Source of the DNA: a candidate division WWE3 bacterium UBA1379
GTDB taxonomy: Bacteria > Patescibacteriota > WWE3 > UBA101185 > UBA10185
NCBI GenBank assembly: GCA_002305475.1
Contig: DBRB01000005.1
Coordinates: 1-39,202 of the forward strand
Direction: 5' to 3'
Length of the DNA: 39,202 nucleotides
A program made the position numbers and the translations under genes. The first letter of the stretch is position 1, and each line of letters opens with the position of its first letter. The notes below the pieces were generated by a model that saw only the letters and a list, made by a program, of their open reading frames with translations, was not told where the DNA came from and did not search any database. This document shows, in pieces, positions 4,784 through 39,144 of this stretch.

Positions 4784-4859
4784 TGGTGCCAACGGGTGGA
4801 ATTGAACCACCGACCTAGCGCTTATGAAACGCCCACTCTAACCACTGAGCTACGTTGGC
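4784..4859 (-). tRNA. tRNA-Met (anticodon CAU), elongator type with encoded CCA. Could alternatively be the lysidine-modified Ile2 species.
   Basis: The reverse complement GCCAACGTAGCTCAGTGGTTAGAGTGGGCGTTTCATAAGCGCTAGGTCGGTGGTTCAATTCCACCCGTTGGCACCA folds as a cloverleaf by hand: 7-bp acceptor with G1-C72 paired, D stem GCTC/GAGT, anticodon loop TTCATAA, T loop TTCAATT. Confidence 0.85.
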
Positions 4860-4981: not shown

Positions 4982-5560
4982 GTGCCAAGGAAATATATTA
5001 TTAAAGTTTATAAACCTAATGCGTATTATCACATTTACAACAGAGGAGTTGAAAAAAGAGCAATATTCTTAACACCTGAAGATTACAAAAAATTTCTTCA
5101 TTTTCTGAAGGAATCAATAACGAGAACCGAAGTTTGCATGGTAAGCTACTGTTTGATGCATAACCACTATCACTTATTAGTATACCAACAAAATCCGCGC
5201 GACATCACAAAACTGATGAGATCTGTACGCACAAAATATTCTTCCAATTTTAACTATAAATATGATCGTGTCGGATGTCTCTTTCAAAGCAGTTACCGCG
5301 CGAGAATAATTAAATCCGAAGAAGATTTATTGGCTACTTCAGCCTATATTCACAACAACCCTTACAGGGATAAACCCGGGTCTATCCCTAAAAAATACCA
5401 GTACACCAGCCTGCCTGAATATTTAGGTACCAGAACAACAACATGGGTCAATACACAAAATATTATTTCCATTTTTAAGCAACATAATAGTGTTTTTTGG
5501 ATAAACGATTATCTGAAATACCACGAGGATAAAAGAAAAGAAAGGATGGATCTAGGTTGA
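4982..5560 (+). mobile_element. IS200/IS605-family (Y1 HUH) transposase, RAYT-like, with a GTG start
   Basis: 192 aa carrying the HUH motif region LMHNHYHLLVY and the downstream catalytic Tyr region SAYIHNNPYR, the architecture of Y1 transposases (Pfam Y1_Tnp). It lies between two tRNA genes. Confidence 0.7.
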
Positions 5561-5570
5561 TCCCTAATTT

Positions 5571-5644
5571 GGTTGCGGGGCCCGGATTTGCACCGGGGCC
5601 TTCAGATTATGAGCCTGACGAGGTACTACTCCTCTACCCCGCGT
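5571..5644 (-). tRNA. tRNA-fMet-like (anticodon CAU), initiator-type acceptor end with encoded CCA
   Basis: The reverse complement CGCGGGGTAGAGGAGTAGTACCTCGTCAGGCTCATAATCTGAAGGCCCCGGTGCAAATCCGGGCCCCGCAACCA resembles E. coli tRNA-fMet (CGCGGGGTGGAGCAGCC...CCCCGCAACCA), including the C1:A72 mismatch. Anticodon loop is CTCATAA. It is atypical in that the anticodon stem has only one G-C in place of the three consecutive G-C pairs, and the T loop is TGCAAAT. Confidence 0.65.
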
Positions 5645-5772: not shown

Positions 5773-6159
5773 TTATAGGAATAATTCTACCCAAAGCTGG
5801 GCGTTGGTTTTTTCTTTTGGCATACTGTCTTCTACCACTTTCCCGTTTTCTATCACTACAGAATTTGCGGGTATTAATTCGCTGATATATACTTTTTCTC
5901 CCGGTTTAATGAGATTAAGTGCGTTACGGGCACGTTCTTCTACAAACTCATTAGTTCGTTTATAGGCAATCATACTTTCTAAGGTTACCTTCTTTTCTTC
6001 GAGGGTACTAATCTCCGATTTCATATCCTCTAAACGCTTGCTACTCTGCATAACATTTAATGTAGTCCTAATAAAGTTCGCAGTTGCTATGAGTATTAAT
6101 ATACTAAGGATTAAGTATTTTATATGAGCAGGCACCGACATTAACGACATTATATACAA
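5773..6159 (-). CDS. ftsB: Septum formation initiator family protein (FtsB/DivIC-like)
   Basis: 128 aa. One N-terminal TM helix, a coiled-coil stretch (LEDMKSEISTLEEKKVTLESM), and the FtsB-family motif FVEERARNALNLIKPGEKVY near the C-terminus. Confidence 0.6.
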   Translation of the reverse strand: MYIMSLMSVPAHIKYLILSILILIATANFIRTTLNVMQSSKRLEDMKSEISTLEEKKVTLESMIAYKRTNEFVEERARNALNLIKPGEKVYISELIPANSVVIENGKVVEDSMPKEKTNAQLWVELFL

Positions 6160-6290
6160 GGTGCGTCAGGAATCAAGTTTATTTGCATTATTCAAACATA
6201 TTTATCATACATCTGTTGACATTTTGAAAACAAAGTGATAATTTGTCATCCTATAGTAACTGTGCTACACTCTGTCCTAGAAAGAAATAT

Positions 6291-7166
6291 ATGATTAGTT
6301 TAGAAACTGCGCGTAACAATTTTATAAAGCATCTGGAAAATCAAGGAAAATCCCATTCTACATTACTAGCATATGGAAAAGATATTGAACAACTTATATC
6401 TCACCTGGCTAAGAAGGGAGTAACTAATGTTAATGAAATTACCCTGGAGCATTTGGAAGATTTCATGAAAAAACTGGCTTCGGAGAGCTATACTAATAAA
6501 TCCATTTCCAGAAAAACCAACTCCACAAAGACTTTTTTTAGATTTCTGAAAGAAAAAGGACATATTGACACAAACGTTGCTGATTTATTAAAGCATCCTA
6601 AAGTCGATATCAAGGCTCCGAGAATTTTATCCAAATTAGAATACAGAGCATTGAGAGACGCAGCAAAAGAAGATCCTCGTACATCAGCCATTATCGAAGT
6701 ACTTCTGCAAACAGGAATTATGATTTCTGAACTGGCAGATATTAAGATGGAAGATCTTCACATGGATAAAGATTCTGGGACTCTTTTTATACCCGGAAAA
6801 CCGAATAAAGATTCCAGAACTATTCCTTTGAATAAAGCTGTTATCGAAGCTATAAGAAACTATATTGAAAAGGATCGTCCTAATGACAAGGATGCAAAGC
6901 ATCTATTTATCACAAAATCAGGAAAACCTCTTCTGATCAGAAATATAAGATCAACTATTGAAAGATACTATAAAGCAGCCGGTGTAGAAAATGCTAAGGT
7001 GAATGATTTGAGACATACATTTGTTGCATTTCATTTATCAAATGGAACAAACATTGTACAAGTTTCAAAGATAGCCGGTCATAAAAGAGTATCTACAACT
7101 GAAAGATATCTTCAATACATTGAAAGACCTTCCGGAGAAGAAAAAACGGAACTTGGTATTTTATAA
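6291..7166 (+). CDS. Tyrosine recombinase, XerC/XerD / phage-integrase family. The track ORF begins at TTG 6243; ATG 6291 (MISLETARNNF) is the more likely start.
   Basis: The N-terminal SAM-like domain and the C-terminal catalytic domain both match the family (TGIMISEL, IPGKPNKDSRT, NDLRHTFVAFHLSNG, GHKRVSTTERYL with the nucleophile Tyr). At the positions of conserved Arg-I and His-II the sequence has Met and Asn. A sigma70-like promoter sits upstream: TTGACA 6216-6221, TG-extended GATAAT 6236-6242. Confidence 0.8.
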   Translation: MISLETARNNFIKHLENQGKSHSTLLAYGKDIEQLISHLAKKGVTNVNEITLEHLEDFMKKLASESYTNKSISRKTNSTKTFFRFLKEKGHIDTNVADLLKHPKVDIKAPRILSKLEYRALRDAAKEDPRTSAIIEVLLQTGIMISELADIKMEDLHMDKDSGTLFIPGKPNKDSRTIPLNKAVIEAIRNYIEKDRPNDKDAKHLFITKSGKPLLIRNIRSTIERYYKAAGVENAKVNDLRHTFVAFHLSNGTNIVQVSKIAGHKRVSTTERYLQYIERPSGEEKTELGIL

Positions 7167-7645
7167 AATCACATAAAATAAACTACCCTATATGGATAGT
7201 CTGCCTTCTGTCCGGAGGTACGAGCTACCGTTATAATTTTACAGATCACTATTAGTTTTCTAGTGGTTTTATCCTTTGTACCTTGTCTTGGTTTTTTTCA
7301 ATTTATCTTATCTGTATCTGCCTTGTACTTTACTTGATAGCTAAGCACAGATAAGTTATTTTTCTTTGACATGTGAAGCCTACATATTAAATTGATATAT
7401 ATTAGTTTTTTTTGCTAATGCAAACAAATAAAGGACAAAAAGGTATCAATCTTTAACAAGTATTATTTATTCATTTCCGTCTGAGTATTTAACTTCTTTA
7501 GTATATATAAATAATTGTTAAGTATGTTTTCTTATTTACAATTGACTAGTATTTATTTAAATCCAAAATCAATTAGGAACAATCAAGAAGAACCACTATA
7601 TATAATGATAAAGGACAAGTTCAAAATCCCAAAATAGCGTATAAA

Positions 7646-7849
7646 ATGGCTAAAGAAGAAGATCCCTATCATAAGAAATCATTTTTCGGTTTAATAAAAC
7701 CAAGTGAAACTAAAGTAAAAGAAGGAGAGCGTGCAGCAGAAAAAGTTGGGGAAACACTAAACAAAGCTAATAATAGAACTCTAGCAGAACAAGCAGAAAT
7801 AAAGAAAGCTTCAGATACGAACCTAAACCACCGCATAGCTTTGATGTGA
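7646..7849 (+). CDS. Hypothetical small charged protein (67 aa); the coding call is uncertain
   Basis: ORF with ATG start whose stop overlaps the next start (ATGA). No recognisable domain. Confidence 0.3.
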   Translation: MAKEEDPYHKKSFFGLIKPSETKVKEGERAAEKVGETLNKANNRTLAEQAEIKKASDTNLNHRIALM

Positions 7850-8268
7850 AACAAGAAAATATAAATAATTACTCCGACGAAGCAAAAAGATTAGTCGAGT
7901 TAATACTTAATGAGTTGGAGAAACAAGGTTTGTCGGATCTACCGTATCAGAAAGAAATTTTGTTTGCAGAAATACATGGCTTCCCTAATCTCTCAAGCGA
8001 GGATGCCGAAATAAATGAAAATGGTCCTATGAGAAAATTCATATCTAGTACCTTAGTAGAACGGCTAACGGAACAAGGTATCAGCGTACATTTGCTAACT
8101 AACAGTTATAGTGAGAAGAGTGAGGTGGAACCTGGCAAAAATTTAGGAATTAGAGTATTTCAGGCTGTCGAAGAGGGGAGTTATGGTCCAGACTATCAGA
8201 AAAATACCTTTAGCTATCAGAGATCTAAAATCCAGATCTATTTCACAAGAAATACATTTGAGTACTAA
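7846..8268 (+). CDS. Hypothetical protein (140 aa)
   Basis: ORF overlapping the stop of the preceding ORF. No recognisable domain. Confidence 0.4.
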   Translation: MKQENINNYSDEAKRLVELILNELEKQGLSDLPYQKEILFAEIHGFPNLSSEDAEINENGPMRKFISSTLVERLTEQGISVHLLTNSYSEKSEVEPGKNLGIRVFQAVEEGSYGPDYQKNTFSYQRSKIQIYFTRNTFEY

Positions 8269-8299: not shown

Positions 8300-8375
8300 T
8301 GGTGGGTGTTCCTGGACTCGAACCAGGGACCGAGCGTGTATAAGACGCTTGCTCTACCAACTGAGCTAAACACCC
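8300..8375 (-). tRNA. tRNA-Ile (anticodon UAU) with encoded CCA
   Basis: The reverse complement GGGTGTTTAGCTCAGTTGGTAGAGCAAGCGTCTTATACACGCTCGGTCCCTGGTTCGAGTCCAGGAACACCCACCA folds as a canonical cloverleaf: anticodon stem AGCGT/ACGCT, loop CTTATAC giving U33 and anticodon T-A-T, T loop TTCGAGT. Confidence 0.8.
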
Positions 8376-27986: not shown

Positions 27987-28516
27987 TAATGGTCCTTAAT
28001 AAAATAATTATTCCCTTAAAGTTTTGTAATTTTCTCTTTTGGGTATTAATTATTGTTTCACTTTATAACAAGCAAGCATATGCTGTTGAATATGCACCAT
28101 GTCAGCCTAATTCTTCCCACTGCACCTTAGTAGATGATCTAATCGGCTCACATTATGATTGTGCATGTGACGTATTTTGCGATCCCGGAGAAAAATGTGA
28201 AAAAAGAATGGGTATAGGTGCGAGTGGGTACTGGTGTCGGGAATCAAGCCTTTGTGTGGATCCAAATCCTGCTTATACAGACTGTACCTACGGGGAAATC
28301 GAAACATGCGGAAACAGTATATTGAACTCTTCCTGTGCAGATAATGAAAGATGTTTGTCACCTGCAAACACTGGCCCCGGCGGAAGCAGCAGACCTCAAT
28401 GTGTTCCTGATACTTCCTGTGTAAATGATCCAGGTGTCTGTGCAAATTTACCGGGGGCAGGTGCATATTGGCAACCTCTTGCACAGCAAACAATCCCCAA
28501 CAACTGGATTGTTTAA
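27987..28516 (+). CDS. N-terminal fragment of Cys-rich hairpin-anchored protein A (signal peptide plus Cys-rich region). The track ORF begins at TTG 27953; ATG 27987 gives a clean signal peptide.
   Basis: MVLNKIIIPLKFCNFLFWVLIIVSLYNKQAYA | VEYAPCQPNSSHC..., with 22 Cys in the mature part. It ends at TAA 28514-28516, while the downstream part of the same gene continues in another frame. Confidence 0.6.
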
Positions 28517-29460
28517 ACGGAACTGTATGCTGTACTTCTAATGAAAACGACTGCAATAGCATGGGTGGGATCTGTGACACCTCCTGTGGTGGCACGGGAG
28601 TTATACCCACCGGTATCTGCGGTCCAGGATCATTAGGCCAGTTATGTTGCAGACAAGAACCTGCTAAAGCCTGTGAAGTTTCGGTAGCTGCAGGAGGCCT
28701 TGGAGGTGAATGTGTAACAGCGGGTGCCTGTGGATCAGCACCCTTAACACCTGCTTCCGGATGTCTGTTTACCGAGGAATGCTGTCCTACTTCATCTACC
28801 CAAACATGCGAGGATGCGGGGGGTGTTGTTGTAAGACACGCAGGATGTGATACCCCTATAGAAGGTGTCGTTACACCTATTGGAGCATTATGCTGCAATC
28901 CCACTACCCTTCCAAAATGTAATGAAATACCTGGAGGTGGGTTTTGTACGTTTTTGCATTGTGATGTTACTCCGGTTGCTTCTTCGGATTGTGCGGCACC
29001 TAACATCTGTTGTCCAAACACACAGCGATTCTGTGAGGTTGGTAATGCGGGGGGACAACCATCATTCGGAGGTGTATGCAACGGGACACCTTGTACTACC
29101 GTTACACAAGCAAGAGAATGCTCCGTGTGTTGTCTTAATTCAGATGCGATACCTCCTCCTGACGGAAATGATGATGATCCCAGAGGTCCTACTTACACAT
29201 CCGAATACACAGGTCCAAAAATTACAGTTAATCAGCTAATAGGACTAATATACGATATAATGCTTCCAATAAGCATTGGGGTAGGATTGTTATTTATCAT
29301 AAAAGCAGGTTATGTTTTAAAAACTTCTGAAGGTAATCCTACTAAAAAACAGCAAGGTATTGATGATTTAACCGGCGCGGTGGTAGGTACATTATTTGTT
29401 GGTCTATCCTTAGTAATTTTGAGAGTAATCATTAATTCTATTTTGGGTGGCAATATTTAA
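28468..29460 (+). CDS. C-terminal fragment of Cys-rich protein A: Cys-repeat ectodomain plus the conserved C-terminal two-helix hydrophobic hairpin
   Basis: This frame is open from 28429, with no signal peptide of its own. Its Cys-rich repeats match the architecture of the intact paralog B. The last ~90 aa are near-identical to the C-terminus of B and homologous to the three small downstream proteins. Confidence 0.6.
   Translation: MATSCTANNPQQLDCLNGTVCCTSNENDCNSMGGICDTSCGGTGVIPTGICGPGSLGQLCCRQEPAKACEVSVAAGGLGGECVTAGACGSAPLTPASGCLFTEECCPTSSTQTCEDAGGVVVRHAGCDTPIEGVVTPIGALCCNPTTLPKCNEIPGGGFCTFLHCDVTPVASSDCAAPNICCPNTQRFCEVGNAGGQPSFGGVCNGTPCTTVTQARECSVCCLNSDAIPPPDGNDDDPRGPTYTSEYTGPKITVNQLIGLIYDIMLPISIGVGLLFIIKAGYVLKTSEGNPTKKQQGIDDLTGAVVGTLFVGLSLVILRVIINSILGGNI
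29245..29402 (+). repeat. 158-bp block perfectly identical to 30750..30907 (3' hairpin-module coding region shared by genes A and B). The surrounding ~260 bp are ~85-90% identical.
   Basis: Direct comparison of the two gene 3' ends. The block from CTAATATACGATATAATGC through ACATTATTTGTTGG is identical base for base. Confidence 0.85.
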
Positions 29461-29608
29461 TTATCTCTCATTTTTTAACTCAATCATAGTGGATCCGAAT
29501 AGTTACAGCGAACCATCTTCTTAAATAGATATCAACGCATCATATATACTTGACTATCAATTTGTTTACCCGTCATAATCCTATTACAAAAGTTTCTAGC
29601 AACATTAT

Positions 29609-30968
29609 TATGAAAAATATTAATAAAATTTTATTATTCTTCCTGTTTCTTTTTGTCGGCTTTCTTTTTTATACCGGTAAAGTATACGCAGACTGGTGTA
29701 CGGAACCTAGATATGCTGCTTTAGGAGCTCGATGTGTGTCTATGGCAGGATCTACGGAATTTAGATGTCCGGACGGTTTTAGCACTTATCCAGATCCTAA
29801 TGTAGTTTGCCCGGTTGATGGGGTTGAAATCTGCTGTGTACCAAACACCAGGATGTGTTTAAACAATAGTAGCAACAGCTGCCATAATACATCCTGCCCT
29901 GCAGGCTATGTTCCATCACAACCAGGTAATTTATTATGTCCGATTAACGGTCAGGTTTGTTGTACACCACAGCAAGCTCCAAACCCAGAGCAATGTCCTA
30001 CAGGTAATGGAGTATGTCTACCTAATTGTAATGTAACAGGATACACAAATGATCCGCAAAGAAGATCCTGCACAATTAACAATACAGAGTGTTGTATTAG
30101 AACAAATACCGGAAGTTGTCCGGCACCCCCAAATGGATTTTGTTTTAGCGGTACTTGCAGTGGAGGAACCGTACCGGATCCTCAAAACAGATTATGTTCT
30201 ACACCAGGAAATGTATGTTGTCTTCCAGCGAGTACTTCAACACAATGTCCGGCTTCTCCTGAAGGTTATTGTTTTTCAGGTGCATGTGCCGGGGGGACAG
30301 TACCGGATCCACAGGGAAGACAATGCTCAACCAGTGGACAAACCTGCTGTGTACCAGATCCAAGCGATGCCTGTCCTGCACCTCCAGACGGGTTTTGTTA
30401 CGATGGATTATGTCCGGGCGGTTTGATGCTGGATAGTAGATCATGTCCTAATGCAAGTCAGAATTGCTGTGTGGAGGAAGAAATTGTTATTCCTCCTACA
30501 GAATGTACCCCTAACGCAACAGTATGTGATATACAAATTGTAAATGGGGTAGTAGTTAGTGCGTGGTGCCCCTGCGGTGAATCTGGCTGCGGTACAAATA
30601 CCAGATGTGTAAAAGGAGTCGGAGATACATTCTTTTGCCAAAACGATACGATTGCTTGTATAGCTGAAGACGACCCGTTAGACCCAGATGATTCAACGTA
30701 CGAATCAGAATACACAGGACCGATAATCACAGTAAATGAGCTGATTTCTCTAATATACGATATAATGCTTCCAATAAGCATTGGGGTAGGATTGTTATTT
30801 ATCATAAAAGCAGGTTATGTTTTAAAAACTTCTGAAGGTAATCCTACTAAAAAACAGCAAGGTATTGATGATTTAACCGGCGCGGTGGTAGGTACATTAT
30901 TTGTTGGATTGTCATTAGTGATTTTAAGAATTATAATTAATTCAATCTTAGGTGGTAACATAACTTAA
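29609..30968 (+). CDS. Cys-rich secreted protein B: signal peptide, ~38-aa six-Cys tandem repeats, C-terminal VirB2/TrbC-like two-helix hairpin. ATG 29609 is the likely start; the track TTG 29550 lies inside the promoter.
   Basis: Signal peptide MKNINKILLFFLFLFVGFLFYTGKVYA | DW. About 60 Cys in repeats of the form CPAPPxGFCFSGxCxGGTVPDPQxRxCSTxGxxCC(V/L)P. C-terminus ...IYDIMLPISIGVGLLFIIKAGYVLKTSEGNPTKKQQGIDDLTGAVVGTLFVGLSLVILRIIINSILGGNIT. Promoter TTGACT(29550-29555)-N17-TCATAAT. Confidence 0.75.
30117..30476 (+). repeat. Three tandem ~126-129-bp coding repeats, each a ~38-aa six-Cys unit, within gene B
   Basis: The units start at 30117, 30246 and 30372. Each encodes CP(A)(P/S)PxG(F/Y)C(F/Y)xGxCxGG...(R)xC...CC(L/V)(P/E). 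Confidence 0.75.
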
Positions 30969-31013: not shown

Positions 31014-31376
31014 ATGAACTTACAATTAATACAGGATGTTTATGCAGGACCTGGTGTAGGTACAACAGTATCCAGCTCATTAACAACTGACTTCACTGAT
31101 ATCGGTGACCTGGCTGGTTTTGTAATCAATATTATTCTTGGTATAGGTTGGGCTTTAACCTTTATCATGCTTGCCGGTGGTTTTATCAGATACATCACAT
31201 CAAGAGGTGAAACCAAGGCTACGGATTCTGCACGAAACTGGCTGACATATGCCGCTTTAGGAGGGGTTGGTTTGTTCTTCTTAACTGTTATTAAAAATAT
31301 AATACTGTCACTATTAACTGGTAATACAAGCAGACCTCAGGAAATTGACGAACAATTTGACCCGTTTGCCAACTAA
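31014..31376 (+). CDS. Small two-helix hairpin protein P1 (VirB2/TrbC-pilin-like topology), candidate major subunit
   Basis: 120 aa. Hydrophobic helix (FVINIILGIGWALTFIMLAGGFIRYI), loop TSRGETKATDSARNW, second helix. Homologous to the C-termini of A and B. Strong SD AAAGGAGGTG 13 nt upstream, and a hairpin terminator downstream. Confidence 0.7.
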   Translation: MNLQLIQDVYAGPGVGTTVSSSLTTDFTDIGDLAGFVINIILGIGWALTFIMLAGGFIRYITSRGETKATDSARNWLTYAALGGVGLFFLTVIKNIILSLLTGNTSRPQEIDEQFDPFAN

Positions 31377-31804: not shown

Positions 31805-32233
31805 ATGTTAAAGGTATTAAGATCAGTATTAATATTTACTCTATTAATAACAGCTTTCAATGTGTTTTCAGAACCTGCATATGCCGTAAACTGCACCCCT
31901 CTTTCGGATGAAGCACCCGGACCACAGGATATAATCTGCCCTGTTATAAGAATTGTGAATATCGCTTTGCTTTCTTCCGGAGCGGTATTAATTCTGATGC
32001 TTTTATGGGGCGGTGTTAAATTAGCGCTGGCAATCGGAGATCCAAAAGCCATGCAGGCTGCATCAGCAACATGGACTTGGGCTATCATAGGATTTGCTGT
32101 AGTAATCGGCGGTGCTACTTTATTGAAAATAGTAGCGGGCTGGTTCGGATGGGAAGCAGACTTTCTTAATCCCTTTGATACACTTCAACAAAAAATACAG
32201 GAATTTATGTCGCTTTTGCATATTGAAGGTTAA
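31805..32233 (+). CDS. VirB2/TrbC-like pilin-type protein P3 (signal peptide plus two hydrophobic helices)
   Basis: 142 aa. Signal peptide MLKVLRSVLIFTLLITAFNVFSEPAYA | VNC. Mature part with two Cys, helix 1 AVLILMLLWGGVKLALAIGDPK, loop, helix 2 WAIIGFAVVIGGATLLKIVAGWFGW. This layout resembles Agrobacterium VirB2. Confidence 0.65.
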   Translation: MLKVLRSVLIFTLLITAFNVFSEPAYAVNCTPLSDEAPGPQDIICPVIRIVNIALLSSGAVLILMLLWGGVKLALAIGDPKAMQAASATWTWAIIGFAVVIGGATLLKIVAGWFGWEADFLNPFDTLQQKIQEFMSLLHIEG

Positions 32234-33525
32234 TATTCTATTAAATACGCGCCACCTAAAGTAAATGTATTGATTAAACTATTCCCTGAGTAGTAAACAT
32301 CTGAAACTTTTCCTTGTAACTCAACATTAAAACTATAACTTCTTGAAATTCCTGTTTCTAGATCTATCACTATTATATCTAAGGTACGTGTTTGTGGATT
32401 TATACCACTAAACGATACAACTTTATCTTGTATAAATGCGGGAACTAGCTCTGTTAATGGAATATTTTTGTTGAAAATATTTACAGATGTTCTTGTATTA
32501 TTAGTGAGATTATATATTACCCAGTTATTACCATTAAAATATAGTATGTCCTCTCTTGATGGATTTGTTTTTATATATGATAGCGGAGATGTATCGATGT
32601 TCTTTTTATCCCAACTGAATGTAGTTTTTTCCAAAGATGATATTATATAGTATTCATTACCTAGATTACCCACATCACTAGGCTGTTCAATAACCACGAT
32701 TTTATTCTGATTTCCTAGTACCGCTTTATATAATCCTGCTAATATTTCCGTGGATAATTCGGTTGTTACTCCTGTGTCGGTATCATATATTGAAAGCGTT
32801 GATGTTGCATTCAGAAAATTTATATTTGTTTGGTATAGCAGTTGTTTTAATTGAGGATTATAATCCTGAACCCAACCTTTTATTGAAAGTTCCCGCAATA
32901 CAGGTGTACTTTTCGACTGCCATGGTGAGAGATCCAAAGAAAATATCCTTAGATTATCCAACTGTTCTCCTGTTGTAACATAAGCCTTCTGTGCATCTAT
33001 CCATAGCAGATCACGCACTCTTGGCAATTGCTCTCTTAACAACGCAAAATAATCTTCACCTGTATTAATCTCCACTATCCTGGTCTGGTTATTATAGTAA
33101 ACTAAATAAGGTTTAAGCGTATCCGGGTATAAGAACGATGTATAATTAATCCCGATTGTATCTTTATATAATTCATTAGTAGTAGGTGCTCTTTTTAATG
33201 AATAGGAAACCTGTCCCGTTTTAATTATATCCGAGGTAATTACCTGACCTTCAATCCAAAAACCATTTAATTTGAGCTGGATAAAATCTCCATCGACAAG
33301 CCCTAATGATGCAGGGGTTGTTTGTCCCGAGTATTTATCATTAATAAATATCTGTGCTCCCGTCGGCTCGGATATTATCATCAACGTACCCTGACTCTTT
33401 TCACTAGTACCAGTAGACACATTTCGATCAAATGCGGGGTTTGTACTGACGTTCCTGAAAAAATAACCGATCAAAAAAACCACGAAAAGGATTAATATTA
33501 ATATTATTATTTGTTTCTTTTTCAT
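32230..33525 (-). CDS. Membrane-anchored extracytoplasmic protein with PEGA domain and a beta-rich (propeller-like) region
   Basis: 431 aa. N-terminal TM anchor MKKKQIIILILILFVVFLIGYFF. PEGA-like TLMIISEPTGAQIFINDKYSGQTTPASLGLVDGDF. Then ~330 aa rich in beta-strand-type repeats. Its stop shares the TTAA with the stop of P3 (convergent). Confidence 0.55.
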   Translation of the reverse strand: MKKKQIIILILILFVVFLIGYFFRNVSTNPAFDRNVSTGTSEKSQGTLMIISEPTGAQIFINDKYSGQTTPASLGLVDGDFIQLKLNGFWIEGQVITSDIIKTGQVSYSLKRAPTTNELYKDTIGINYTSFLYPDTLKPYLVYYNNQTRIVEINTGEDYFALLREQLPRVRDLLWIDAQKAYVTTGEQLDNLRIFSLDLSPWQSKSTPVLRELSIKGWVQDYNPQLKQLLYQTNINFLNATSTLSIYDTDTGVTTELSTEILAGLYKAVLGNQNKIVVIEQPSDVGNLGNEYYIISSLEKTTFSWDKKNIDTSPLSYIKTNPSREDILYFNGNNWVIYNLTNNTRTSVNIFNKNIPLTELVPAFIQDKVVSFSGINPQTRTLDIIVIDLETGISRSYSFNVELQGKVSDVYYSGNSLINTFTLGGAYLIEY

Positions 33526-33537
33526 ATCTTTATTAAA

Positions 33538-36500
33538 CTATGGACGACATGCCTCATTCCAAATTTCTCCCATTGCACGCCAATCAGTAAAACATGCAAG
33601 TGCACCAGAAGACCATCTTGATATTAAATCAACAACGCTTACACCTGCAACATCATGACTGTTTTGAAAGTTTCCGGTCTGGCTTCCTGCAAAGTGAGTA
33701 TGAGGGTGTGTACCTAAAGTATGACAACTTCCAGAACAATCAGAATGACCAAGTGTTGTTCCCGCTGCAACAGGTATACACCCCTCTGGCGATGGTCTGC
33801 CCGTAATTGTTGTATCCATCATATGAGTAAAGTATAAAGAAGGGCAAGGAGATGTAATTTCATCATTCCAGTCTCCAGAAGGATCCGTGGGATATAAATA
33901 AACAGAAACACCGCCTGTAGGATCCATTTCAGGAAAGGCACACCCGTCAAACGGAGCTACCACAGGCTGACCCTCGCATTGGTATACATCTGAGATACCT
34001 TCCGTACTACTATGGGTGCAACTATAACCTAATAATCCAGGGAACGGATTTCTACCCGGACAATTTGTACCATCACCAAATCTACCTCGTGGAGGAGCAG
34101 ATCCGGAACCGGGAGGTACAACAACCGGTAGTTCATCTCCTACACATTCACCGGAAACACATTGAAGAGAACAACATATAGAAGAATCTGAACAGGATTC
34201 CCCGGTATGTCGGCAGTCTGCTCTTGGCATACCAGCCATTTGATATCCAGTACTACTTCTTGTTGTGTCTATAGGTGGGAAGGTGATAAGAGATGAACCG
34301 AAAAACATAAAGGAGATAATCATGATAATAAAAAAAGGAAAAGCTGTTATATATAAAATCATCTTAACACCAGTGGTCACGAGTTTATCCAAGTCTTTAA
34401 AGAATGTGGAGAGCTCCCCTTTAAATATAGCCTTGAGAAATGCTTCTGTTTTATTGATAACCAGATTTGTTACAAACTTTACAACCGGAGTAATTACTTT
34501 ATCTATTATCGGGGCAAGTACAGAACCAGCACCTGAAGTACTTCCAGCAAGTAATGCCAGAAGAGCTGTTCTAATAGCTCTCGCCACTGCAGTAGATATT
34601 GCATCTTTAACCTGAAACAAAGGAGCGACATATTTACCTATTCTCTTAAAAACTTCTGTCTGAATCTGATTTGCCAAGGATGATAATTTCTGCAGATGAC
34701 CAACCCGATCCCAAGTAATATTTATATAATCAGTGCTTCTTATCCTTTTTCCTAAACCCTGCATCAATTCCGTTAATATTCTTCCATTTTCAGCTGTGTT
34801 TTCAAGATAGTTCCCATTAAAAGACAAACCCAACCTTTGCTGATTTTCTTTAAGCCATCTCAAGAATTTTTCGTTATTTTCGACCAAATCCGTGAATTCC
34901 TTTTCGCCAACCTTCAACCCTTTAACAACCGATATATCTCCGTTGAGAAAGCGGATCATTGAATTACCGCTATCATTAAAACCGACGAGAGCGCCGGTAT
35001 TCTTATCCAACACTGCATTCAAACGGCCTAAAGTTTTGTTTGCAGCATCGTGATCCGATAAAATTCCATGTAGAGTAACCGCACCCTTAAAATGTTTACC
35101 GCCAGCTACCTTCACTCTACCCACCCCCGAGATATCTACAGAAAAGGTGTTTCTCGCTGTAAATGCTTTTGTGCTTGAACCGGCAAAATCCGGATCATAC
35201 ACTAAACCTAAGTAATGTGATCTTTGTAATGTGGCTTTAACTGCCTGAGAAGGATACAAACCGTCAAGATAGGGTCTGATTTTTCCTTGCCATACATAAA
35301 CTTTAAACAGCCTTCCCTTTTCAATATTTGATAAAAAGTCCGCAAAGTCATTCTTCTCATACATAGGGTTGGCTGCCATCAGAAGCCTTCGAACATTTTC
35401 TATGCCGGAATACTGATCAACCTGGGAATTAGTATGTGAGGCTGTTTTTGTAAAGACATCGCGTAGGGTATCCCCACTATTTGGGGTAAACATACTACCA
35501 CCCTGCATCAAATATCTACCGGTAGTCTTATTCAGCAAATCGTGTTGAATGCCCTTTATGGCACCGGGTTGCGTTATACTACTTGCCAAAGTATCAAGAC
35601 GACCTTTTAGTACACCGGCCGATAGTATGCCTACCGAGCCTGAAGACTGTGCCTCTACAGCCAGATTATGAATATCTTCAACTTTCCTTCTAAATGAACT
35701 CATTACCAGGTTGTAATTCTGTTTCTGAATAGGATTAAGGTTTGCAGGTATTACTGTATCAATATCATTAAGCGCATCGCTGGCAACTTTTTGCAAGGTC
35801 TTCATTGAATTCTGAATGGTCAACCCCGCTTTTTCCCCGCCGACTACAATTTTTCCTAGGTTTTCCTGAACACCAAAAATACCTTCTTTTTTAGTAAAAT
35901 TACTTATTCTTTGTACGGCTTTTGTACCGGCAAGAAAATCCTCTATAGCAGCAATTTCATCAACTGATAAACCGGTTACATTATTTCGGAAATTTTCTAC
36001 TTCAGTAGCAACGGCATCCAAAGCACTTAAACGAAGTTCGTTATAATCCCTGTTTCTGGACGAAGTGGCCTCAACACCAACGGTAAATTTCAGGAAAGAT
36101 TGACCAACTTTGGAATAGACATCTGTGGGTATTTTCTCCTTAACAATATCGTAAGTACCGGGGGAAGTTTCCCTTACCATGTTAACTTCAGTGTCTCCCG
36201 GTTTCATCACCCTCAAACCCTGCATCTGATAAGGATTTGGTTCCGTGGTAGGTGTAATACCTAATGTATGTTTGGCATACTCTTCTGCAGGCCTGAAAAA
36301 AGGAGACTGACCTTCCGGTGCTAAATTATCCCGCCCCGCTAAAACAGGCTCCCAGAAATACTTCTGTTCAATGTAGTTTCTGAAGTCTTTCCAGTCAAAA
36401 GTGGATTTAACCCATTGTTCTATAGTTGATTTAAATTGTCCTTCGGGATCTTTTGACCAATCCCCCGGATTGATAGATACCTGAAGCTGAACGCCGGGAG

Positions 36501-36774
36501 TATCATCAATATCCCCGAATTCTAAAGCCCTCTGGGGATCATATGACTGATAACCGGCTTTTTTAGGGGTAGCTGATAATTTAAACTGGGTTTTTATATC
36601 CTCAATAACCGCGTTCTTTACTGCTGCAGGCAATTTTCCAAAGTCAATATCCTTAAATACATTCTCAATCCAGTTTGCTAATACATCAAAGGTATATTCC
36701 TCCGGAGGAGGAACTGCACCTTTTCTGGGCGGTCGGGGTATGGGTTGTCCGGGATAATATCCAACGCGCGGCAT
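33538..36774 (-). CDS. Giant membrane protein (1078 aa): large N-terminal domain of unknown function, TM segment(s), C-terminal Cys-rich ectodomain with a knottin-like six-Cys framework and M23/LytM-like motifs
   Basis: No signal peptide and no P-loop. Hydrophobic segment KMILYITAFPFFIIMIISFMFFGSSLI. It is followed by CRHTGESCSDSSICCSLQCVSGEC (C-x6-C-x5-CC-x3-C-x4-C), then FTHMMD (HxxxD), then CHTLGTHPHTHF (HxH). Confidence 0.6.
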   Translation of the reverse strand: MPRVGYYPGQPIPRPPRKGAVPPPEEYTFDVLANWIENVFKDIDFGKLPAAVKNAVIEDIKTQFKLSATPKKAGYQSYDPQRALEFGDIDDTPGVQLQVSINPGDWSKDPEGQFKSTIEQWVKSTFDWKDFRNYIEQKYFWEPVLAGRDNLAPEGQSPFFRPAEEYAKHTLGITPTTEPNPYQMQGLRVMKPGDTEVNMVRETSPGTYDIVKEKIPTDVYSKVGQSFLKFTVGVEATSSRNRDYNELRLSALDAVATEVENFRNNVTGLSVDEIAAIEDFLAGTKAVQRISNFTKKEGIFGVQENLGKIVVGGEKAGLTIQNSMKTLQKVASDALNDIDTVIPANLNPIQKQNYNLVMSSFRRKVEDIHNLAVEAQSSGSVGILSAGVLKGRLDTLASSITQPGAIKGIQHDLLNKTTGRYLMQGGSMFTPNSGDTLRDVFTKTASHTNSQVDQYSGIENVRRLLMAANPMYEKNDFADFLSNIEKGRLFKVYVWQGKIRPYLDGLYPSQAVKATLQRSHYLGLVYDPDFAGSSTKAFTARNTFSVDISGVGRVKVAGGKHFKGAVTLHGILSDHDAANKTLGRLNAVLDKNTGALVGFNDSGNSMIRFLNGDISVVKGLKVGEKEFTDLVENNEKFLRWLKENQQRLGLSFNGNYLENTAENGRILTELMQGLGKRIRSTDYINITWDRVGHLQKLSSLANQIQTEVFKRIGKYVAPLFQVKDAISTAVARAIRTALLALLAGSTSGAGSVLAPIIDKVITPVVKFVTNLVINKTEAFLKAIFKGELSTFFKDLDKLVTTGVKMILYITAFPFFIIMIISFMFFGSSLITFPPIDTTRSSTGYQMAGMPRADCRHTGESCSDSSICCSLQCVSGECVGDELPVVVPPGSGSAPPRGRFGDGTNCPGRNPFPGLLGYSCTHSSTEGISDVYQCEGQPVVAPFDGCAFPEMDPTGGVSVYLYPTDPSGDWNDEITSPCPSLYFTHMMDTTITGRPSPEGCIPVAAGTTLGHSDCSGSCHTLGTHPHTHFAGSQTGNFQNSHDVAGVSVVDLISRWSSGALACFTDWRAMGEIWNEACRP

Positions 36775-38267: not shown

Positions 38268-38726
38268 ATGTTATTGGCAAAAAACCGTAAAGCTTTTTAC
38301 GATCATGAAATATTGGAAAAATTTACTGCGGGCATAGCTTTAAAAGGCTATGAAGTCAAAGCAGTGAAAGAAGGTAAGGTGAACATGGACGGTTCATTTG
38401 TACAGGTATTGGGTCATGAGGTTTATGTAATCAATATGTATATCGGACAATATTCCAAACAAAGCCAGGAAACAGGGAAACAACAGTCTAGAACAAGCAG
38501 AAAGCTGCTTCTTAGAAAAGAAGAAATTGAAAAACTGCAAAGAGAACTGGCACAGAAAGGAAAAACCGCAATTCCTCTTGCGTTGATCTTATCCCATAAT
38601 ATGATAAAATTGGAGTTCGGAATAGCAAAAGGACGTAAAAAGGTTGAGAAAAAGCACCTTGAAAAAGAAAGACAGATCAAGCGTGATCTGGAAAAAGCTG
38701 TCAAAGAAACACATAAGTATTATTAA
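38268..38726 (+). CDS. smpB: SsrA-binding protein SmpB
   Basis: 152 aa. NRKAFYDHEILEKFTAGIALKGYEVKAVKEG...GKTAIPLALILSHNMIKLEFGIAKGRKK and a basic C-terminal tail. Confidence 0.9.
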   Translation: MLLAKNRKAFYDHEILEKFTAGIALKGYEVKAVKEGKVNMDGSFVQVLGHEVYVINMYIGQYSKQSQETGKQQSRTSRKLLLRKEEIEKLQRELAQKGKTAIPLALILSHNMIKLEFGIAKGRKKVEKKHLEKERQIKRDLEKAVKETHKYY

Positions 38727-38740
38727 TAACGAGTATTTAT

Positions 38741-39144
38741 GGGGATGTAATGGCTTTGACTGAAAGACGCTATCTATGAAAGCAGGCCGAAGTCCTATAT
38801 CTTCGTTAAAAGATAGGAAAAAACAAATGCTGAAAACAAATTAGCATTCGTCGAAGAACCGGCATTAGTCGGTGCATTCGCTTAATCCCGTTAGAGGATT
38901 AGATCCTTTTATTTCTGTCCGGAGTAATAAACAGGGTCATATAAAACCGGAATGAGGTAGTTTAGAAATGGTCTTTTTAAACCGCCAAGGACTCAGAGTT
39001 CATAAGATGCTTAATGTATTAGACCTGCCGAGGATTCTATGGTTAGTCAAATACCTAACCTCTTAAGAAAAATTTGACTGAGCTTGGGAATACTTTTGTA
39101 TTTAGCCTTTCAACACAGGGGTTCGATTCCCCTCATCTCCACCA
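38741..39144 (+). ncRNA. ssrA: tmRNA (ssrA)
   Basis: Starts GGGGATG and ends ...GGGGTTCGATTCCCCTCATCTCCACCA, giving a tRNA-like acceptor/T-arm with CCA and a G3:U70 Ala-identity pair. Internal tag ORF GCTGAAAACAAATTAGCATTCGTCGAAGAACCGGCATTAGTCGGTGCATTCGCTTAA (AENKLAFVEEPALVGAFA*). Sits immediately downstream of smpB. Confidence 0.85.

Follow-up and report, generated by a model that had tools for sequence, protein, structure and literature searches.

The type IV secretion systems (T4SSs) of Patescibacteria are related to the conjugation machinery of monoderm bacteria; they have pilin arrays and no relaxase, and are mostly without a recognisable VirB1 (PMC12102498). Because most of the loci lack such a protein, the passage of these systems through peptidoglycan is an open point (PMC12102498). 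In Candidatus Southlakia, homologues of a peptidase and of a lysozyme that adjoin virB4 are essential (PMC12102498; PMC10633639). Here we describe a 39,202-nucleotide stretch of DNA (the window; contig DBRB01000005.1 of assembly GCA_002305475.1) from UBA1379, an ultra-small (Patescibacteria-type) bacterium of candidate division WWE3, and, within it, a gene on the minus strand that codes for a protein of 1078 amino acids with a C-terminal domain of the M23/LytM peptidase type. We consider it probable, at roughly 0.6, that this protein serves a Patescibacteria-type (monoderm-like) T4SS apparatus as its membrane-anchored peptidoglycan peptidase, functionally analogous to PrgK and VirB1.

Two described proteins invite comparison. 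PrgK, the DELTA-class wall hydrolase of the monoderm T4SS of Enterococcus plasmid pCF10, has the same plan, with an N-terminal domain in the cytoplasm, then a transmembrane helix and a LytM domain outside; this LytM domain has neither HxxxD nor HxH and is inactive, activity residing in additional muramidase and CHAP domains (PMC11323569). The 1078-residue protein, in contrast, has no muramidase or CHAP domain, keeps four of the five catalytic residues along with a displaced histidine, is rich in cysteine and has a putative cytoplasmic region that is larger by a factor of about three. SEML1_0007 of the saccharibacterium Candidatus Southlakia epibionticum is a protein of 1113 amino acids that adjoins virB4 in a T4SS cluster and ends in a peptidoglycan-peptidase-like domain (PMC10633639; PMC12102498). 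Transposon sequencing (Tn-seq) shows it to be essential, and a ‘Peptidase M23 domain-containing protein’ of the candidate phyla radiation (CPR) is one of the structural neighbours of the whole protein (PMC10633639 Tables S1 and S2). Its C-terminal domain (residues 951-1105) is, however, classed as Hedgehog/DD-peptidase (M15-like) and not as M23, and no knot has been reported in it, the comparison here being by description only.

Scans of the whole protein and of its ectodomain alone against Pfam, NCBIfam and PHROG did not find M23. Likewise, word-index homologue searches with the ectodomain or the full protein returned only the protein itself, and phmmer of the ectodomain against the PDB gave chance-level matches only. 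Since the single-sequence Pfam scan was blank for M23, a family profile was needed, and relatives were taken from an exhaustive phmmer search of 1.84 billion cluster representatives. This gave three proteins, P0002 (878 amino acids, E 9e-45), P0003 (1161 amino acids, E 5e-15) and P0005 (636 amino acids, E 1e-5), which have the same architecture of a long N-terminal region, a hydrophobic segment and a related C-terminal domain. The same search also matched P0006, a small canonical M23 peptidase (E 6e-5). When scored against Pfam Peptidase_M23, P0006 reached 62 bits and P0005 reached 30.0 bits (cut-off 28.7 bits). One further relative, L005 from a Saccharibacteria metagenome-assembled genome (MAG), came from a scan of GTDB species representatives, and the family found comprises five members: the window protein, P0002, P0003, P0005 and L005.

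To guard against circularity, a profile (A2) was made from four family members only. An earlier profile used against the PDB (A1) had been biased by one canonical M23 row, and A2, which is without that row, still ranked M23 first, matching LytU (5kqb, E 5e-4) and NMB0315 (E 6.5e-3). When run against the 5.8-billion database, A2 matched three M23+LysM proteins (E 1.6e-7 to 2e-5), and hhalign of the family profile with a separate canonical M23 profile (A5) gave a probability of 98.7% and an E value of 3.9e-16 over 88 columns. The LytM beta-sheet fold was likewise found in the C-terminal domain. We conclude from the profile, fold and transitive Pfam evidence that this domain is a divergent, cysteine-rich M23/LytM-type peptidase domain. 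A preliminary description of the sequence had proposed as much, and the proposal is upheld at the level of the family profile, not at that of the single sequence.

The catalytic residues can be placed by alignment. All alignments agree that D929, within THSSTEGISDVY, corresponds to the aspartate ligand of the M23 HxxxD motif; it sits in THSSTEGISD (nucleotides 33988-34017), after which comes the M23 signature GQPVVAPFDG. H984 aligns with the AHL/LHL and H1025-T-H1027 with the HLHF/HVHF of canonical M23 enzymes, and these residues, together with D929 and H921, are invariant in all five family members at 30-56% identity. The reading frame and all three strings that the preliminary description had quoted from it are real, and its HxH motif does lie in GTHPHTHF. 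FTHMMD, which it had taken for HxxxD, lines up in every alignment with the xHL motif of the catalytic histidine (H984), the aspartate ligand being D929, and it was for this reason that the motifs had seemed closer together than usual. The coordinates it gave for the knot discussed below (34144-34221; here 34144-34215) and for FTHMMD (33819-33836; here 33814-33831, residues 982-987) were right to within a few bases, and the interval for GTHPHTHF (33688-33732) was up to 18 nucleotides too wide at one end, the motif occupying 33691-33714 (residues 1021-1028). The two motifs lie 105 and 144 residues after the knot and not 150-200.

In M23B enzymes (LytM, lysostaphin, LytU and NMB0315) the first zinc ligand is the histidine of HxxxD, whereas in the present family this column holds glutamate or tyrosine and the invariant histidine stands four residues earlier. 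In the window protein this is H921, eight residues before D929, so that the motif reads Hx7D instead of HxxxD, and H921 may substitute for the canonical first histidine as zinc ligand. The M23A enzymes beta-lytic protease and LasA are a precedent for both Hx7D and cysteine bridges in active M23: beta-lytic protease has a long H22...D36 spacing, followed by H82, H121 and H123, and it has disulfides that are needed for folding (PMC8715609). Given the long His-Asp spacing and the essential disulfides of M23A, we regard the Hx7D motif and the cysteine bridges as compatible with an active M23 enzyme.

The 1078-residue reading frame is not an assembly artefact, since an independently assembled copy in Logan (P0011) is identical to it at 1077 of 1078 positions. 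A 116-residue reading frame on the plus strand was taken to be spurious, as it runs antisense inside this well-supported gene. The protein has a single strong hydrophobic helix by Kyte-Doolittle analysis, which, in agreement with the preliminary description, precedes the cysteine block. All 16 cysteines are C-terminal to this helix, at residues 854-1076, and none is found at residues 1-853, a distribution with a probability of about 1e-11 under random placement. The cysteine distribution and the lack of a signal peptide suggest an N-in/C-out topology of monoderm type that would leave the hydrolase domain outside, and the Ala/Gly-rich stretch upstream of the helix is possibly membrane-associated. 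The N-terminal region (residues 1-724) had no match in Pfam, NCBIfam, PHROG or the PDB, and the first 800 residues gave nothing at E <= 1 when compared with the PDB; it is, along its full length, homologous to P0003 at 29% identity. Such a tether, with 800 putatively cytoplasmic residues ahead of it, is not a feature of the M23B enzymes, which are secreted or bound to the wall.

The gene is encoded within a T4SS-like gene cluster (Table 1). The loci of the relatives have the same gene order and, in addition, genes for VirB4 (DUF87/AAA_10/P-loop_TraG), TraC-like proteins and PrgI, along with up to 12 pilin genes; VirB4, TraC-like and PrgI genes were seen beside P0002, P0005 and L005, and equivalent pilin arrays beside the P0005 relative. 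The protein encoded directly downstream of the 1078-residue protein has homologues in L001_455 (E 1e-20) and L005_434 (E 2e-11), and such a partner of about 430-455 residues always follows the M23-bearing gene (window 32230-33525, minus strand; L001 6209-7576; L005 10398-11702). The L005 gene itself (CAYMOT010000001.1, 7976-10636) codes for 886 amino acids, in which a GH5 cellulase-like domain (Pfam E 8.7e-10) is joined to the C-terminal Hx7D M23 variant; the partner gene is next to it and VirB4 about 4 kb away. With this fusion, the M23 module is seen to have undergone domain shuffling inside T4SS loci. As the pairing is constant, even where the N-terminal part is GH5 as in the Saccharibacteria MAG, it suggests that the M23 protein and its partner of about 440 residues are a functional pair.

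Divergently transcribed from the M23 gene is that of a polytopic membrane protein of 445 amino acids, which is 35% identical to L001_438 at the same position beside P0003 (E 1e-61). It had no match in Pfam, NCBIfam or PHROG, and it may be a candidate VirB6-like channel subunit. Its N-terminal loop is rich in cysteine (CGAKF...CQGCAQNLEC). In two genes of the pilin array (28468-29460 and 29550-30968, plus strand), which code for unusually long proteins of 330 and 472 amino acids, the T4SS_pilin domain of about 70 residues is confined to the C terminus, behind a large N-terminal extension; the adjacent pilins have about 110-140 residues. A SpoIID gene flanks the array in the window, as a similar gene of 609 amino acids does at the P0005 locus (L002 21612-21911), and because of this recurrence an enzyme of the SpoIID lytic type may be a regular companion of the T4SS-like cluster. 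The SLT protein of 197 amino acids may be the system's glycosidase of VirB1 type. Three peptidoglycan-remodelling genes (M23, SpoIID and SLT) thus fall within 15 kb.

The window is chromosomal, with genes for FtsH, Suf proteins, LeuRS, L25 and SmpB/tmRNA. The smpB gene is directly followed by that for tmRNA (38268-39144, plus strand; tag peptide AENKLAFVEEPALVGAFA), an ordinary pairing that confirms the chromosomal context. A reading of the 1078-residue protein as a phage tape-measure or ejection protein was rejected, there being no PHROG match and no phage genes nearby; the same points, and the chromosomal T4SS-like context, set it apart from phage entry proteins with M23 such as phi29 gp13 and the internal protein of cyanophage A4 (9k2v).

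Table 1. Positions of the M23-bearing gene, its segments and motifs, and the neighbouring genes in the 39,202-nucleotide window.
Feature	Residues	Nucleotides	Strand	Remarks
Whole reading frame, 1078 amino acids	1-1078	33538..36774	minus	N-terminal region without Cys, then membrane anchor, knot and stalk, then M23-like domain
N-terminal region	1-724	34603..36774	minus	No Cys; no signal peptide; probably cytoplasmic
Ala/Gly-rich stretch	725-775	34450..34602	minus	Moderately hydrophobic (Kyte-Doolittle 1.0-1.57); P0003 has the segment too
Transmembrane helix MILYITAFPFFIIMIISFMFFGSSLITF	805-832	34279..34362	minus	Kyte-Doolittle up to 2.42
Six-Cys knottin-like insert, C-x6-C-x5-CC-x3-C-x4-C	854-877	34144..34215	minus	
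Pro-rich stalk VGDELPVVVPPGSGSAPP	878-895	34090..34143	minus	From sequence; predicted local distance difference test (pLDDT) of model < 50
Divergent M23/LytM-type peptidase domain	896-1078	33541..34089	minus	10 Cys
H921...D929 (HSSTEGISD)	921-929	33988..34014	minus	D929, M23 Asp ligand; H921, candidate displaced zinc ligand; E925 in canonical His column
GQPVVAPFDG, M23 G-x-P-V-x-A-x-x-x-G strand motif	935-944	33943..33972	minus	
YFTHM, xHL motif	981-985	33820..33834	minus	Catalytic-His position H984
H1025-T-H1027, M23 HxH motif	1025-1027	33694..33702	minus	From alignments
Overlapping reading frame, 116 amino acids		34265-34615	plus	Antisense within well-supported gene
Partner gene, 431 amino acids		32230..33525	minus	N-terminal membrane helix and PEGA domain (Pfam PEGA 20.9 bits); 12 nucleotides downstream, co-oriented
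Polytopic membrane protein, 445 amino acids		36856..38193	plus	Divergently transcribed; same position in relatives
T4SS_pilin (PF18895) array, four genes		28468-29460, 29550-30968, 31014-31376, 31805-32233	plus	Pfam
Coiled-coil (long, N-terminal) and SpoIID protein, 602 amino acids		26075..27883	minus	Flanks pilin array; Pfam E 2.3e-18
SLT lytic transglycosylase protein, 197 amino acids		21291-21884	minus	Pfam E 2.5e-19; about 12 kb from M23 gene

The segment between membrane helix and stalk, CRHTGESCSDSSICCSLQCVSGEC, has six cysteines in 24 residues with the spacing C-x6-C-x5-CC-x3-C-x4-C, which is compatible with an inhibitor cystine knot (ICK). A loose ICK regular expression was matched by 820 of 200,000 shuffles of the ectodomain in which its 16 cysteines were kept (0.4%), so that the pattern noticed in the preliminary description is not random. 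AlphaFold folds the segment from the single sequence with a pLDDT of 84-90 and places Cys V and VI on a C-terminal beta-hairpin, all 20 Foldseek matches are knottins, and a superposition of the predicted fold and protoxin-1 (2m9l) spans 32 columns at 1.4 A, with an identity of 38%. None of the Foldseek matches is statistically significant, however, and the same holds for phmmer against the PDB, in which all six matches were knottins and the best E was 0.39. Of the curated knottin families in Pfam, Conotoxin_I2 matched with E 0.65 and Conotoxin with E 2.2, both far below their cut-offs. Comparison with P0003 shows the 24-residue block to be cleanly inserted in the linker that joins the membrane helix to the Pro-rich stalk; P0002, P0003, P0005 and the L005 protein all lack it. 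In the likeness to free ICK peptides (omega-conotoxins and spider toxins such as protoxin-1) the cysteine framework is shared and the predicted fold superposes; those, however, are secreted eukaryotic peptides, whereas the segment here, with its putative disulfides, is set as a module within the chain of a bacterial membrane protein.

These data leave a serious possibility, a little short of even odds, that the six-cysteine segment is not a true knot and is instead one of several lineage-specific disulfide staples, its likeness to toxins arising from cysteine spacing alone. The relatives, all of which lack the knot, do carry unrelated cysteine-rich additions, namely CCNS..DR.GC tails in P0003, P0005 and L005 and, in L005, a 40-residue cysteine-rich loop directly before the HxH motif, which makes disulfide-rich decoration a habit of the family. 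A mere staple would, on the other hand, sit less easily with the confident single-sequence fold and with structural and sequence neighbours that are knottins throughout. As spacing, model confidence and all-knottin neighbours support an ICK and yet no match is significant, we regard the ICK reading proposed in the preliminary description as no more than plausible. The knot is a lineage-specific mini-domain in the stalk and would most likely act as a rigid spacer or a binding module.

A more ambitious version of the ICK reading, which we hold to be distinctly improbable, is that the insert is a genuine bacterially encoded ICK domain in the stalk of a secretion-system peptidase, where it would serve a particular purpose, such as keeping the M23 active site plugged before the machine is assembled or binding to the host surface. 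Plugging of an active site has parallels in the knottin carboxypeptidase inhibitors and in the occluding segment of latent LytM. In the literature, knottins are described as eukaryotic (PMC9116674).

For the protein as a whole, a wall-opening role like that of PrgK or VirB1 is the best reading because the relatives are found in T4SS loci of Patescibacteria whose gene order is the same (VirB4, pilin arrays and the partner of about 440 residues), and the envelope-spanning machine envisaged in the preliminary description fits this context. Pfam found no SLT, lysozyme or CHAP domain in the 1078-residue protein, and in view of the missing SLT and CHAP domains the function would be of the VirB1 class without homology to VirB1. 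From the homology and fold of the domain, its conserved residues and the gene context we infer the following course of events. The Cys-free N-terminal region of about 720-800 residues, which has no signal peptide, would stay in the cytoplasm and the one strong helix would span the membrane. Outside, a short linker, the 24-residue knot with three putative disulfides and the Pro-rich stalk would carry the 180-residue domain of M23/LytM fold, with its ten further cysteines. By analogy with M23 enzymology, Zn2+ would be held by D929, H1027 and the displaced first ligand H921 (Hx7D), and H984 and H1025 would, as in LytM and lysostaphin, serve to activate water and to stabilise the transition state. 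Local cutting of peptide cross-links would then allow a pilus or channel to pass through the cell's own wall or that of an attached host.

Several observations weigh against this role. M23 is missed by the Pfam scan of the single sequence even at E <= 10. The family is small, with five members only, and two metagenome-contig scans and one viral-contig scan yielded no others. No VirB4 gene is present in the 39-kb contig, the pilin genes and the synteny seen in the relatives being what ties the protein to a T4SS. The canonical first zinc-ligand histidine is gone, being E925 here and tyrosine in all four relatives, and the loop with H921 is modelled at a low pLDDT of about 62. Lastly, LytM domains that are degenerate, PrgK's among them, have no activity (PMC11323569).

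The last points bear on the main rival, namely that the M23 fold is catalytically dead and that a degenerate LytM domain binds peptidoglycan or regulates another hydrolase, for which the nearby SpoIID and SLT proteins are candidates. EnvC, NlpD and DipM are degenerate LytM proteins that work as regulators. The replacement of the HxxxD histidine and the presence of the SpoIID- and SLT-domain genes nearby would suit such a function, as would the regulatory role of the inactive PrgK domain (PMC11323569). However, D929, H984, H1025 and H1027, that is, four of the five catalytic residues, and the upstream histidine have stayed invariant while overall identity fell to 30-56%, whereas the PrgK domain is without both HXXXD and HXH, and M23A enzymes allow a long His-Asp spacing (PMC8715609). 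We therefore judge a dead domain to be unlikely and prefer an active peptidase.

An active enzyme might also have the wall of the host bacterium as its target, serving attack or feeding and not assembly within the envelope of its own cell. Patescibacterial T4SSs are essential for epibiotic growth (PMC10633639) and are without DNA-transfer parts (PMC12102498), and in the relative from Saccharibacteria this M23 variant is joined to a GH5 glycanase, all of which would be in keeping with a host-directed tool. The domain is, however, tethered to the membrane of its producer by only about 60 residues (linker, knot and stalk), and we identified neither a cleavage site nor a secretion signal by which it could be released. 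A host-wall target is rather improbable on these grounds, and it would be a variant compatible with the wall-opening peptidase proposed here. As for the suggestion in the preliminary description of a toxin-like module, a released effector acting on another cell is scarcely credible, as the resemblance to venom ICK peptides is its sole recommendation and is not significant, the knot lies between membrane anchor and enzyme domain with no recognisable processing sites and is not conserved in any relative, and the ICK toxins matched here are animal venom peptides acting on animal ion channels, a target irrelevant for a bacterial epibiont.

Further features of the window lie away from this cluster. 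A tRNA-Ile gene with the anticodon TAT (UAU) is present at 8300-8375 on the minus strand; a genomic UAU tRNA-Ile is uncommon, as AUA is read in most bacteria by a CAU tRNA modified to carry lysidine. A gene for an IS200-like Y1 transposase (4982-5560; Pfam Y1_Tnp E 2.6e-12) stands between tRNA-Met genes at 4784-4859 and 5570-5643, and a tyrosine recombinase/integrase gene follows at 6243-7166, the lowest GC content of the window (0.325) being found at 6001-8000. The transposase/integrase region from 4784 may be a small mobile insertion.

What emerges is a cryptic Hx7D, cysteine-rich M23 domain, probably of a Patescibacterial T4SS, with a unique knottin-like insert. The insert would, if real, be a rare bacterial example of the fold, its general importance being limited because it is confined to one protein; a genuine bacterial ICK would extend the knottins to Patescibacteria and point to a self-regulated wall-cutting tool for epibiosis. 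The epibiotic life of Patescibacteria depends on a T4SS-like machine that is poorly understood, and our analysis points to one lineage that uses for it a cryptic M23 peptidase, missed by standard Pfam annotation, which is set behind a very large, probably cytoplasmic region and paired with a partner of about 440 residues. The missing wall-opening activity thus has a concrete candidate in the 1078-residue protein.

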